Shown: positions 2,724 through 43,378 of the stretch, one piece after another
How positions within the stretch are numbered: the stretch's first letter is position 1
Layout of the letters: each line of letters opens with the position of its first letter
Source: Dictyostelium discoideum
Taxonomy: Eukaryota
Length of the DNA: 64,000 nt
Reading direction: 5' to 3'
NCBI GenBank assembly: GCA_000004695.1
Contig: CM000153.2
Coordinates: 2,688,001 to 2,752,000 of the forward strand
Notes under the pieces: generated by a model
What the model saw: the letters and a program-made list of their open reading frames with translations, nothing else
The model's database searches: none
Told to the model about the DNA's origin: nothing
Position numbers and translations under genes: made by a program

Positions 2724-2922
2724 ATAATTGTTTATAAAAAATTAATATAGAAATTGTATCTTCGAATTCAAAGAAGAGAAAATATAAATAATAATATAAT
2801 TAATTACATTGTTAATATTATTTTGTGAACCCCTAAAAAATAAAAAAATAAAAAAAAAAAATAATAAAAAAAAAAAAAAAATGAAAATTAAATTTGGAAA
2901 AAAAAAAAAAAAAAAAAAAAGA

Positions 2923-2930
2923 ACCCATAA
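2923..2930 (+). promoter_or_regulatory. DUSE-like motif ACCCATAA (Dictyostelium upstream sequence element consensus [AT]CCCA[CT]AA).
   Basis: An exact match to the consensus that sits about 60 nt upstream of Dictyostelium snRNA, snoRNA and class I RNA genes. It lies in a 2.6-kb intergenic region, about 60 nt upstream of a locally GC-richer segment. Confidence 0.25.
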
Positions 2931-2990
2931 ACAAAGTTATTAAGTTGTTAATATTAATTTGATATTTTTTTATTTTAAACATTAGAATAC

Positions 2991-3125
2991 ACGTGGATTC
3001 TGATCGATTTTGATTTCTTCTGAGAATATCGTGGGAAACATCCACCAGAACGAGCCCGTATTTTCACTTACCAATCAGAACAGTAATATAATGCTGTGTT
3101 TGAATGATGAAATTATACAGCTTTT
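2991..3125 (+). ncRNA. Candidate small structured ncRNA (snoRNA-like). Its class is not determined.
   Basis: This ~135-nt island is clearly GC-richer than the surrounding poly-A/T DNA and begins about 60 nt downstream of the DUSE-like motif. It has complementary segments GUGGAU(2993-2998)/AUCCAC(3041-3046) and UUCUGA(3001-3006)/UCAGAA(3074-3079). An AUGAUGA (box-C-like) sits at about 3104-3110 and an ACA lies 3 nt before a possible 3' end at about 3122. No convincing C/D or H/ACA architecture could be assembled by eye. The overlapping + ORF 3010..3285 is low-quality. Confidence 0.2.
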
Positions 3126-3905
3126 TAAATTAATAATAAAAAAAAAAAAAAATATATCTTTAAAACATTATAAAACTCTAATTAATATGTTTCATTCATT
3201 ATCCCAAAAGTCAATATTTTATATTAAAAGCCAAAATTTTATATTGAATATTGACTTGTGTATTTGGATAAAACATAATTATTAGAATTTATTTTATTAT
3301 TTTTATTTTTTATTTTTATTTTTTTATCATCTCAAAAATATACACCTAAAAAATAAAAAAATTGTTTTATTTTAAAAATTCAATAAACCCAATGCAAAAG
3401 AATTGTTTAAAAAAAGAAATTTTGTGTTTTAACCGAAATAACCCAAAATTTGATATTTTTTTTTTTTTTTATTTTTTTTTTTTTTTTTTTTCTTTTTTTT
3501 TTTAATTTTCTTTTTTTTTTTCAAAAATAAAAAAATAAAAAAAAAAAAAGGAAAAAAAAAAGTTTTTTTTTATTCATCTTGTACATTAAAATATTTTAAT
3601 CTATTTGTATATTATATAAAGAAAAAAAAAAAAAAGAAAAAAAAAACCCACACCCACACACACACACAACTGTACCATACACAACACATAAAAACAATTT
3701 CACTTTAGTATCAAAAAAAAAAAAAAAAAAGCAAAAAAAAAAAGCAAAAAAAAAAAAATAATAAATCATTATCACATCAAAATTATTATTATTTTTTTTT
3801 TCACATTAATTTTCAACATAACCACATTCTAAAAAAGAAACATTAAAAAAAAAAAAAATAAAAGAAAAAAAAATAATAATTATAGTAGAAAATATATATT
3901 AAAAA

Positions 3906-5567
3906 ATGGCAAATAAAAATGTATTATCAGAGATGGATGATTTGATGGCAGAGTTAGGATTAGTAGAGACTACAGCAACACCAACATCAGATCAAATCAA
4001 ACAACCACAACAAGAAACAGCACCAACATATCTTACATATAAAGATCCAAATGTATCAACAGGACCTGGAGGAGATTTTAGAAATTTAAATGACAATAAT
4101 GGTGGTATATCACGTGGACCAGGATTAATGAGTACAGGACCAGGATTAGTCAGTACAGGACCAGGATTAATGAGTACAGGACCAGGTTTAATGAGTAAAG
4201 GACCTGGTTTACCAAATAATAGTATCAATAATAATATAAGTAATAATAATGGTGGTGGTATTAGCTCAGGACCAGGATTATCATTTGGAGTATCATCAGG
4301 TGTATCATCAGGTGTATCATCAGGTGTATCATCAGGTGTATCATCAGGTGTAACATTAGTAGCACAAAATCATTTAGCACGTCAACCTTCACCACCATTA
4401 AATTCACAACAACAGCAACAGCAACAACTACCAACATATTTGGATGGAGTTGGTACATTACAACCAATTTCATTAGCAGCAACAACACCAGATGGACGTG
4501 TAGTTAAAGCTAATGGACCAATTTGCGGAGCATGTGGAGATATGATTATTGGAGTTTGTACAAATGCATTGGGACGTTCATATCATCCAGAGCATTTTGT
4601 ATGTACCTATTGTAAATTACCATTCTCAGGATCATTCATTGAACATGAAGAAAAGTTATATTGTGAGAATGATTATTTGGAATTATTTAGTCCACGTTGT
4701 TTCGCATGTATTAAACCAATTGAAGACACATGTATCAATGCATTGGGTAATCGTTATCATCCAGAGTGTTTCTCATGTTCAGGTTGTGGTGACAAGTTAC
4801 GTGGTAAACCATACAAAGAGGAGGATGGAGAAGTTTATTGTAACACATGTAAGATTGCAAGACAAAAACGTTTAGCAGCAAAATCTGAAATTTGTTCAAA
4901 ATGTAAACTTCCAATCACTGGTGAATACATTATTCTTCAAGGTCAACCAGTTCATTCGGAGCATTATCGTTGTGAAGAGTGTGGTTGTGAATTCAATGTG
5001 GGTAAAACTTGTCATGAATATGAGGGTCGTCTCTATTGTTATGAAGATTATCAAAAACAAATTCTCAATATATGTGGTGCTTGTTCAAAACCAATCGTTG
5101 GTCGTTCAATCACTGCTTTGGGTAAAGTTTGGCATCCAGAACATTTCACTTGTACCACTTGTCAAGTACCATTCGCTGGAAGTGCTTTTCGTGAACATGC
5201 TGGTAAACCCTATTGTGAATCACATTATCATCAATTCTTTGGTCGTCAATGTTTCAAATGTTCAAAACCTGTGGTTGACACTGGTGTTGAAGTATTTGGT
5301 AAAATCTATCATCGTGAACATTTCACTTGTACAGGTTGTGAATGTGTTTTAGGTAAAGAAATTATGGAATGGGATGGTAAACCACTTTGTTTCAAATGTT
5401 TTGATGCACTTCCAAAAGAAGTTAGAAAAAGAATTAAAGAAAAGAAAGCTGGTGATAAAAAAGCTGAAGCTTATCGTGAAAAATTAGCTAAAAAAGAAGC
5501 AAAAGAATTAAAAAAAGAAAGAGAAAGAGCTGCAAAAGAAAAAGAAAAAGAATCAAAAGCTAAATAA
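3906..5567 (+). CDS. paxB: Paxillin-like focal-adhesion adaptor: an N-terminal LD motif followed by a C-terminal array of LIM zinc-finger domains. Single exon, 553 aa.
   Basis: An LD1-like motif SEMDDLMAELGL sits at the N-terminus. The LIM units carry the paxillin-type WHPEHF signature (YHPEHFVC, YHPECFSC, WHPEHFTC, YHREHFTC) with C-x2-C-x17-H-x2-C-x2-C-x2-C-x17-C-x2-C/H/D spacing. I count five such units. The mid-region has tandem peptide repeats, GPGL(M/V)S(T/K) x5 (nt ~4116-4212) and SSGV x6 (nt ~4284-4353), and the C-terminus is K/E-rich. The symbol is assigned because D. discoideum has a single paxillin, PaxB, reported as 569 aa. Repeat-number differences could explain the length difference. 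Confidence 0.8.
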   Translation: MANKNVLSEMDDLMAELGLVETTATPTSDQIKQPQQETAPTYLTYKDPNVSTGPGGDFRNLNDNNGGISRGPGLMSTGPGLVSTGPGLMSTGPGLMSKGPGLPNNSINNNISNNNGGGISSGPGLSFGVSSGVSSGVSSGVSSGVSSGVTLVAQNHLARQPSPPLNSQQQQQQQLPTYLDGVGTLQPISLAATTPDGRVVKANGPICGACGDMIIGVCTNALGRSYHPEHFVCTYCKLPFSGSFIEHEEKLYCENDYLELFSPRCFACIKPIEDTCINALGNRYHPECFSCSGCGDKLRGKPYKEEDGEVYCNTCKIARQKRLAAKSEICSKCKLPITGEYIILQGQPVHSEHYRCEECGCEFNVGKTCHEYEGRLYCYEDYQKQILNICGACSKPIVGRSITALGKVWHPEHFTCTTCQVPFAGSAFREHAGKPYCESHYHQFFGRQCFKCSKPVVDTGVEVFGKIYHREHFTCTGCECVLGKEIMEWDGKPLCFKCFDALPKEVRKRIKEKKAGDKKAEAYREKLAKKEAKELKKERERAAKEKEKESKAK

Positions 5568-37624: not shown

Positions 37625-38284
37625 AAAAAAAAAATTCCATCATTTAAGGCCCCGATATATCCAGAAATTTCATTTGTTTTCAAACAGATAAATAACTATT
37701 TTTTTTTTTATTTTTTTATTTTTTTATTTTTTTTTTTAAATTTTTTTTTATTTAGTTTGTAGCTTCAATTAAAAAAAAAAAAAAAAAAAAAAAAAATTAA
37801 AGTTTGCAAAGATACCTTTTTTTTTTTTGGGTATGAAAATTATAATATAGGTTTTATATGTTAAAAATAAATATTAAAATATTCAAATAATTATAGTTTT
37901 AATTTTAATTTTTATTTTTTTTAGTTTTTTTTTTTTTTGGAAATAATTAAATTTTAAAAGTATAATTATACTTTATTAAAATCTTTAGATTGTTTAATGA
38001 AGACGTTATTAATTTTTTAAAAAATACCAAATTGTATTTATGGATTTGATACCACCCCACCATGCCAAATTAATAAAAAATTTATTAAAAAAAAAAAACA
38101 AAACAAAAAAAAAAAAAAAAAAAAATTGAAAAAATAATATTAATATTTAATAAATGGTATTAATAGAATTTTATAAAATTAAGTAACCTGAAAAAAAAAA
38201 AAAAATTGAAAAAATAAAAATAATGAGAATAAAATTTAAAAAAATAATCCTCTAAAACATTTATTCTTTTTAAAGTCCTAAATC

Positions 38285-43164: not shown

Positions 43165-43378
43165 TAAAAAAATAAAAACAATCGACTAACAAATTTTAAG
43201 TTGAAAGGAATAAATAAAAAAAAAAAAAATTTTTTTGGGTGGATTTTTGTATTTTTTTTTTTTTTGGTTTTATTTTTTTTATTTTTTTTTTTATTTTTTT
43301 AATTTAAATTTTTAAAAAAAAAAAAGTAAAAAAGTAAAAAAAACAAAAAAAAAAAAAATTTTAAGAAACAACACTACT

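Follow-up and report, generated by a model that had tools for sequence, protein, structure and literature searches.

A candidate gene for a small nucleolar RNA of the box H/ACA class behind a DUSE promoter element upstream of paxB in Dictyostelium discoideum, with a predicted target in helix H39 of 26S rRNA

Introduction

The methylation of ribosomal RNA (rRNA) has been mapped in Dictyostelium discoideum, and 47 box C/D guides belonging to the small nucleolar RNAs (snoRNAs) have been described (PMC8817022). The species also has the full set of H/ACA proteins, with dkc1, gar1, nhp2, and nop10 (PMC6912284). Of the box H/ACA class, a single snoRNA, sno18, has been stated to be the only one identified in D. 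discoideum (PMC6912284, 2019; PMC8817022, 2022). The present study deals with an intergenic segment upstream of the gene paxB, which is a candidate for another H/ACA snoRNA gene. The segment comprises positions 2993-3122 of a stretch of 64,000 nt of the D. discoideum genome (assembly GCA_000004695.1, contig CM000153.2, positions 2,688,001 to 2,752,000, forward strand). This whole stretch is called the window throughout, and coordinates refer to it unless another locus is named. An earlier inspection of the letters of the window, called the sequence-only reading, had singled out the segment as a possible unannotated small RNA.

Two groups of described RNAs are relevant for the comparison. The first group are RNAs that are transcribed from the DUSE, the upstream sequence element of Dictyostelium. 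It has the consensus [AT]CCCA[AT]AA (PMC3188802), it is used by genes of RNA polymerase II (Pol II) as well as of RNA polymerase III (Pol III) (PMC7919456), and the arrangement is conserved in Group 4 dictyostelids (PMC7919456, PMC3188802). They include the Class I RNAs, which have a length of 42-65 nt, a short terminal stem, and a conserved 11-nt motif, CCUUACAGCAA (PMC7919456, PMC3188802). The second group are the H/ACA guides of other eukaryotes. In human guides the spacer between pocket and box is usually 14-15 nt long, and 13 nt are also frequent (PMC8763049). Both U1847 and U1849 of human 28S rRNA are pseudouridines (PMC11541003).

Results

A conserved GC-richer segment behind a DUSE

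The sequence-only reading had described a DUSE-like element at the canonical distance of about 60 nt from a GC-richer segment, and this arrangement was verified. The element ACCCATAA (2923-2930, + strand) fits the DUSE consensus. It is followed by an A/T-rich spacer of 62 nt (2931-2992, +), and a start of transcription is predicted within the last few bases of this spacer. The GC fraction of the segment 2993-3122 is 0.369, versus 0.123 in the flanking 300+300 nt. The DUSE motif by itself is not beyond chance, because WCCCAWAA was observed nine times in the window and 20 occurrences were expected from shuffled sequences, i.e., the motif is under-represented.

The locus was compared with the paxB loci of the closest retrievable relatives, D. 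firmibasis (L001) and D. purpureum (L002), and with that of Acytostelium subglobosum (L124). The paxB gene encodes a LIM-domain paxillin homologue (open reading frame (ORF) 3906-5567, +), and its protein sequence is 88% identical in D. firmibasis and 76% identical in D. purpureum. A blastn search against D. firmibasis yielded a match at L001 9008-9148 (81.7% over 142 nt, E 8e-34), and the orthologue of the RNA segment was located at L001 9033-9161, about 0.85 kb upstream of paxB. The D. purpureum orthologue is situated at L002 8994-9126, about 0.9 kb upstream of paxB, and the gene on its other side is a different one. A DUSE, TCCCATAA, is found at L001 8961, 64 nt ahead of the first stem, and a DUSE-like element with one mismatch, TCCCACAA, at L002 8923, 63 nt ahead of the first stem. 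Thus, the length of the spacer is retained in all three species (62, 64, and 63 nt), despite an identity between the spacers of D. discoideum and D. firmibasis of only 0.51. Between these two species the identity was 0.815 within the RNA segment versus 0.51-0.59 in the adjoining 78-130 nt, and at G/C positions it was 0.77 in the RNA versus 0.345 in the rest of the intergenic region. The case is above chance because the segment, the motif, and the spacing of 62-64 nt recur upstream of paxB in both relatives. Taken together with the base-pairing described below, this conservation supports the proposal of an independent structured small-RNA gene behind a DUSE, and it is predicted that transcription of the RNA depends on the DUSE motif.

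The base-pairing of two hairpins is conserved by compensatory changes

The predicted mature RNA has a length of 130 nt (2993-3122, +). In each of the three orthologues the unconstrained minimum-energy fold had the order hairpin, hinge, hairpin, and tail. The 5′ hairpin (2993-3045, +) is built from a lower stem (2993-2998/3040-3045) and an upper stem (3005-3008/3028-3031), with the pocket strands UCUGAU (2999-3004, +) and UGGGAAAC (3032-3039, +) between them. The 3′ hairpin (3060-3116, +) has a lower stem formed by 3060-3066 with 3108-3112 and 3115-3116, and an upper stem (3075-3085/3092-3103), the base of which is paired in all three species. This hairpin was also present in each of the unconstrained folds.

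An automatic alignment (A1, MAFFT/RNAalifold) placed the 3′ end of D. purpureum wrongly, and therefore a hand alignment (A2) was used. In A2 the elements of the three sequences were aligned by hand with the structure in view, gaps were represented by N, and the alignment was scored on an H/ACA structure of 22 pairs. All 66 cells (66/66) contain standard pairs, and 10 of the 22 pairs are altered on both sides and thus compensatory. They comprise 5/6 pairs of the lower and 2/4 pairs of the upper stem in the 5′ hairpin, and 3/7 pairs of the lower stem in the 3′ hairpin, where two further changes are one-sided. The observed pairing or covariation score was attained by none of 500 shuffles, and pairing fell to 33-50% in slid controls, in which the partners had been moved by 1-3 columns. 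The comparison with related species, which had been named as a check of the candidate, thus yielded a conserved segment, a conserved DUSE spacing, and covariation.

Two complementary 6-nt pairs had been noted by eye in the D. discoideum sequence. The first, GUGGAU (2993-2998) with AUCCAC (3040-3045), is a real stem, since five of its six pairs are changed on both sides in D. purpureum and are still paired. For the second, UUCUGA (2998-3003 and 3018-3023) with UCAGAA (3075-3080), the motifs are present; the proposed pairing is not supported, because the change to UCAAAA in D. firmibasis is uncompensated, and the halves both fall in other elements of the conserved fold.

A covariance model (R1) was built from the loci of the three Dictyostelium species. 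It gave 121-124 bits for its own training loci, which is expected by construction. Nothing else significant was found in the window, and a search of 146 kb gave no further match of comparable strength.

Features of the box H/ACA class

The hinge between the hairpins contains the H-box-like motif AGAACG (3047-3052, +). It deviates from the consensus ANANNA at the last position, which is a G. The corresponding motifs of D. firmibasis (AGAAAA) and D. purpureum (AUAUAA or AUAAUA) are all canonical. An ACA near the 3′ end had already been noticed in D. discoideum, and it is indeed found at 3117-3119 (+), immediately 3′ of the 3′ hairpin and invariant in the three species. In all three of them it is located 3 nt from the predicted 3′ end. 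For D. discoideum this predicted end was set according to the rule for the H/ACA class, and the resulting tail of 3 nt, GCU (3120-3122, +), is not conserved in sequence. The spacer between pocket and box measures 15 nt in the 5′ hairpin; in the 3′ hairpin it measures 13 nt, and 14 nt in the case of D. purpureum.

The segment was assigned to the H/ACA class because of its two hairpins, the hinge with the H-box-like motif, the ACA 3 nt from the predicted end, and the pockets 13-15 nt from the boxes. Therefore, the locus 2993-3122 is likely to be a DUSE-driven box H/ACA snoRNA gene. The sequence-only reading had left the class open, and the features do fit the H/ACA class.

The candidate was also compared with snoRNAs that are already described. 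The primers for quantitative PCR of sno18 (PMC6912284) had no match in the window with up to three mismatches, and the RNA is not among the 47 box C/D snoRNAs of PMC8817022. In the literature no later paper with further D. discoideum H/ACA snoRNAs was found, and an earlier record in older primary papers (Aspegren 2004, Larsson 2008) or in dictyBase is possible.

The 3′ pocket is complementary to helix H39 of 26S rRNA

The pocket of the 3′ hairpin consists of the 5′ guide strand CUUACCAA (3067-3074, +) and the 3′ guide strand AUGA (3104-3107, +). The 5′ guide strand is identical at 8/8 positions in D. firmibasis and at 7/8 in D. purpureum, while the neighboring stems diverge. The 3′ strand is AUGA in D. 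discoideum and D. firmibasis and AUGCU in D. purpureum, so that AUG is conserved. In the comparison of D. discoideum with D. purpureum, the two strands of this pocket are the most conserved part of the RNA (7/8 and 3/4 identical positions, versus 2/12 and 7/14 in the stems).

CUUACCAA was found to be a perfect 8-nt complement within the published D. discoideum 26S rRNA fragment UUUGGUAAGCAGAACUGGCGA, which surrounds Am1370 in helix H39 (PMC8817022, supplement). According to the pairing rule of H/ACA guides the target is expected to have the form 5′-(N)CAU-U-N-UUGGUAAG-3′. UUGGUAAG corresponds to positions 1361-1368 of the 26S rRNA and the unpaired pair to 1359-1360, and therefore U1359 is the predicted pseudouridine. 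The partner of the conserved AUG would be the CAU immediately 5′ of these target uridines. The predicted duplex thus comprises 8 bp plus 3-4 bp, with a spacer of 13 nt. Am1370 has been equated with yeast Am1133 and human Am1858 (PMC8817022, Table 1), and therefore U1359 and U1361 are the equivalents of human 28S U1847 and U1849.

A set of 120 environmental eukaryotic large subunit (LSU) contigs, comprising 398 kb of rRNA-encoding DNA (rDNA) and none of it from D. discoideum, was used for further comparison. The D. discoideum-specific 26S reverse primer occurred in none of the 120 contigs. The 21-mer of the site occurred 121 times, and 86 of these occurrences have GCCAU at the required place, among them that of L076, the contig nearest to the published D. 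discoideum 26S fragments. When the 398 kb were scanned with the guide strands, the H39 site was the sole recurrent high-scoring target (86 loci, canonical register). Provided that the RNA belongs to the H/ACA class, it thus appears fairly probable that it guides pseudouridylation of H39 at U1359 and/or U1361.

A scan of genome contigs with 20 nt from the fragment around A2159 of the D. discoideum 26S rRNA gave an exact match only in a contig of a Chloroflexi metagenome-assembled genome (CBDCVS010000003.1, L125 2387-2406, - strand). No rRNA was detectable on this contig, and the match is apparently due to chance.

A candidate homologue in Acytostelium subglobosum

In A. subglobosum the model R1 retrieved a match of 19 bits at L124 9406-9528 (-) (E 0.065 over 146 kb, 3.6e-4 locally). 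The match falls into the region of 823 nt upstream of paxB, and its orientation is opposite to that of this gene. The candidate is situated between a P5-ATPase gene and paxB, a neighborhood that is also present in D. purpureum. The order of its motifs is UGAU..UGGGAA..AGAUUG..CAUACCAA..AUGG..ACA+3, and the pocket CAUACCAA/AUGG fits CCAU-UU-UUGGUA. The hinge motif AGAUUG ends in G, as does that of D. discoideum. A DUSE-like element, TCCCATTA, was observed 81 nt upstream of the candidate, which is off the canonical distance. A match in Cavenderia fasciculata, UUUUACCAAUU, also upstream of paxB, was rejected; it reached 9 bits and had neither an ACA nor an H/ACA fold.

The 5′ hairpin and the alternative of an H/ACA RNA with another role

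The 5′ hairpin has the right geometry, and no convincing target for it was found in the scan of the 398 kb rDNA. Its pocket strands UCUGAU and UGGGAAAC are the same in D. firmibasis, and in D. purpureum they differ at 2/6 and 3/8 positions. Two potential targets were considered and not adopted. The first, GUUUUCAU-UA-AUCA of the small subunit rRNA, would be bound by 7 bp, including three G.U pairs, and by a further 4 bp; it fails for D. purpureum. The second, GUUUCCC-UC of the LSU rRNA, which we take to be the site of yeast pseudouridine 960, would be bound by only one of the strands, with 7 Watson-Crick pairs in D. discoideum.

The tip of this hairpin carries an apical motif, GAUUU..CUGA (3012-3023, +), which is invariant in the three species in the form GAUUU-N3-4-CUGA (columns G20, A21, T22, T23, T24, C28, T29, G30, and A31 of A2), and a similar motif, GAUUAUUCUGA, is present in the A. 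subglobosum candidate. Within the apical motif, tandem G.A/A.G pairs together with U.U pairs are conceivable. It is tempting to speculate that the RNA guides the modification of H39 and in addition uses the apical motif as a dictyostelid-specific signal for protein binding or localization, resembling a CAB box or the kink-loop bound by L7Ae. This combination seems unlikely, and the motif may have been kept simply by descent. A kink-loop bound by L7Ae is a feature of archaeal H/ACA RNAs, and we know of no kink-turn or kink-loop that has been described in eukaryotic H/ACA snoRNAs. A reading of the apical GA..GA as a canonical kink-turn was discarded, since its topology is devoid of the canonical C-stem and the 3-nt bulge.

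The apical motif and the 5′ hairpin also bear on the alternative that the segment encodes an RNA of the H/ACA type which is no guide for the modification of H39. Such an RNA might be an orphan, a guide of the Cajal body that resembles the small Cajal body RNAs (scaRNAs) and acts on a spliceosomal RNA, a snoRNA with a role in processing like snR30/U17, or the product of a gene in decay. The invariant apex would fit a role of this kind, particularly because D. discoideum has a CAB-box-like UGAG there, and so would the short 3′ side of the predicted duplex, the 5′ hairpin that is devoid of a convincing target, and the imperfect H box of D. discoideum. On the other hand, the UGAG is restricted to D. 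discoideum and becomes UGAU in the other species, and the 3′ pocket is the best-conserved element in three species, its core being kept in the A. subglobosum candidate. Furthermore, the human equivalent of the site matched by the pocket is pseudouridylated, and a decaying gene is not expected to have kept its DUSE and the spacing. An H/ACA RNA without a role at H39 is thus quite unlikely.

Other classes of small RNAs

No Rfam 15 family matched the RNA, neither at the gathering threshold in the whole window nor in the E-value mode at 2850-3250, with the exception of a chance match to mir-84 (E 7.9). Rfam holds Dictyostelium DdR families such as DdR18, and none of them matches the candidate. The absence of matches, which includes the families of small nuclear RNAs (snRNAs), DdR, and Class I RNAs, argues against the view that the segment belongs to the box C/D snoRNAs, the spliceosomal snRNAs, or the Class I RNAs, or that its product is a transcript of Pol III such as a vault-like or Y-like RNA. 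Some features point in these directions. The segment contains one AUGAUGA and two CUGA motifs, which are reminiscent of boxes C and D. In a box C/D snoRNA, box C (RUGAUGA) is close to the 5′ end and box D (CUGA) close to the 3′ end, and the ends of the RNA bring the two together; here the AUGAUGA follows both CUGAs and is close to the 3′ end, which is the wrong order. The sequence-only reading had regarded this AUGAUGA (3104-3110) as box-C-like. It is present; it is not a box C, because it is replaced by AUGCUAA in D. purpureum, and it coincides with the 3′ strand of the 3′ pocket and the beginning of the lower stem. For a Pol III transcript, it could be adduced that the DUSE serves genes of both polymerases (PMC7919456) and that a T5 run (3122-3126) follows the segment in D. 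discoideum. Since the run is missing from both D. firmibasis and D. purpureum, it probably does not represent a conserved terminator of Pol III. The sequence CUUAC resembles a part of the Class I motif; the complete 11-nt motif is absent, however, and with 130 nt the RNA has twice the length of Class I RNAs. It is therefore very improbable that the segment belongs to one of these classes.

Conserved regulatory DNA as an alternative and the genomic neighborhood

The segment is found in an A/T-rich intergenic region of 2.6 kb, with paxB on one side and a gene on the minus strand (start near 1245) on the other side. It could thus be argued that it is conserved regulatory DNA in a divergent promoter region and no RNA gene at all. 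When D. discoideum is compared with D. firmibasis, other blocks of the same region surpass the segment in conservation (about 92% identity for the best windows of 130 nt, and about 97% by eye at 1957-2070), and the DUSE motif alone is no commoner than expected by chance. However, ten base pairs are kept although both partners have changed, which is no requirement of DNA-binding sites, the D. purpureum copy retains the architecture despite little sequence identity in the stems, and the element and the DUSE stay together while the neighboring gene varies between species. Taken together, there is hardly any probability left for a purely regulatory element. A coding reading of the overlapping ORF 3010-3285 was dropped, because the frame is interrupted in D. 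firmibasis.

Another assembly, GCA_054883475.1 (L126), encodes the same paxB protein, and the RNA segment 2993-3122 is 100% identical. The poly-A tract just 5′ of the DUSE (about 2900-2921) is seemingly a few bases longer in this assembly, although the two stretches that were compared truncate it at different places. Two A/T-rich blocks elsewhere in the intergenic region, 1957-2070 and 2120-2150, exceed the snoRNA candidate in conservation between D. discoideum and D. firmibasis, the first one over about 110 nt. This first block is missing from the locus of D. purpureum and has no stable fold (z = -0.28), and a regulatory role in the divergent promoters is possible.

The further occurrences of WCCCAWAA in the window were also inspected. 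Two of them are located just 3′ of the snoRNA candidate (3202-3209 and 3441-3448, +) and one at 43233 (-); only A/T-rich sequence was found after each of the first two, and A/T-rich sequence also after the third. Four others (13500, 47011, 52773, and 61188) lie within GC-richer, coding-looking sequence. A small patch of higher GC (..CUGGAUAUAUCGGGGCCUUAAAUGAUGGAA, about 37635-37697, -) with a T10 at its end lies 135-200 nt downstream of the element ACCCAAAA on the minus strand (37825-37832). The spacing differs from the canonical 60 nt, and the patch might be another small RNA or due to chance.

Discussion

A possible mechanism can be derived from what is established for the H/ACA class. The RNA would fold into two hairpins, and the H box in the hinge and the ACA box at the 3′ end would each hold one set of dyskerin/Cbf5, Nop10, Nhp2, and Gar1. 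The internal loop of the 3′ hairpin would pair with H39 of the 26S rRNA (CAU-UU-UUGGUAAG) on both sides of two unpaired nucleotides, CUUACCAA with positions 1361-1368 and AUG with CAU. U1359 would thereby be placed in the active site of dyskerin and be isomerized to pseudouridine. In a second possible register the upper stem would open two pairs, GAAUG would pair with CAUUU and CUUACC with GGUAAG, and U1361 would be presented with a spacer of 15 nt.

Several points weigh against an H/ACA guide for H39. There is no Rfam match at any threshold, so that this database gives no positive support. Rfam misses are common for fast-evolving H/ACA guides. The H box of D. discoideum has no conserved final A. 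The fold energy of the lone D. discoideum sequence is unexceptional (z = -1.55) and not beyond chance, because 19 of 200 shuffles fold equally well. Of the checks that had been proposed for the candidate, the Rfam search and the fold energy therefore gave nothing in its favor, whereas the unconstrained folds of the three orthologues were H/ACA-like. The covariation is based on a hand-made, structure-guided alignment of three sequences, two of which are closely related. The A. subglobosum candidate alone does not fold in an H/ACA-like manner, and hence it is a probable homologue, not a proven one. At the target, the guide duplex has a short 3′ side of 3-4 bp, and the bases 5′ of U1360 in the 26S rRNA of D. 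discoideum were deduced from the environmental sequences (GCCAU in 86/121). In yeast, the equivalent of the canonical-register target, U1122, is not known to be modified; yeast has pseudouridine 1124, which is the equivalent of U1361 and is guided by snR5. Transcription and both ends of the RNA are predictions, and the binding of proteins is likewise deduced from the class.

If the assignment is true, the candidate would be a second H/ACA snoRNA of D. discoideum, in which this class is nearly unexplored, and it offers a concrete, testable target at a site whose human counterpart is a pseudouridine. It would also mean that in D. discoideum an H/ACA guide can have an independent gene, which is driven by a DUSE and is conspicuous as a GC island. 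The main value is practical, and no concept is altered: a DUSE and a GC island, when combined with an H/ACA descriptor and with synteny to either D. firmibasis or D. purpureum, are a recipe for finding the missing pseudouridylation guides of Amoebozoa.

The closest known systems are the H/ACA guides that act on H39 in other eukaryotes, i.e., yeast snR5 and the guides of human pseudouridines 1847 and 1849. The candidate shares with them the two-hairpin architecture, its pocket would pair with the conserved stretch CAUUUUUGGUAAG just 5′ of Am1133/Am1858/Am1370, and the predicted target uridines are homologous. In contrast, homology at the sequence level is undetectable, there is no Rfam match, and the candidate has a DUSE promoter of its own and is neither intronic nor equipped with a promoter of the yeast type. 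It also differs from snR5 in that its canonical register selects the equivalent of human U1847 and not that of yeast pseudouridine 1124. The two possible registers resemble the human dual-register pockets of SNORA53, SNORA57, SCARNA8, and SCARNA1 (PMC8763049), with uridines two positions apart (U1359/U1361) and spacers of 13 and 15 nt; the second register of the candidate is purely predicted, and it would open two pairs of the upper stem and leave four guide bases unpaired. The snoRNA sno18/DdR18 belongs to the same organism and the same RNA class, and it is a different gene, as neither its primers nor the DdR families matched. Lastly, the candidate differs from the known DUSE-driven non-coding RNA genes of Dictyostelium, i.e., those of snRNAs, Class I RNAs, and some snoRNAs, in its predicted product, an H/ACA guide and not an snRNA or a Class I RNA of 42-65 nt, and it has no TGTG box. 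With these genes it shares the promoter arrangement, [AT]CCCA[AT]AA about 60 nt upstream of the start of the RNA.

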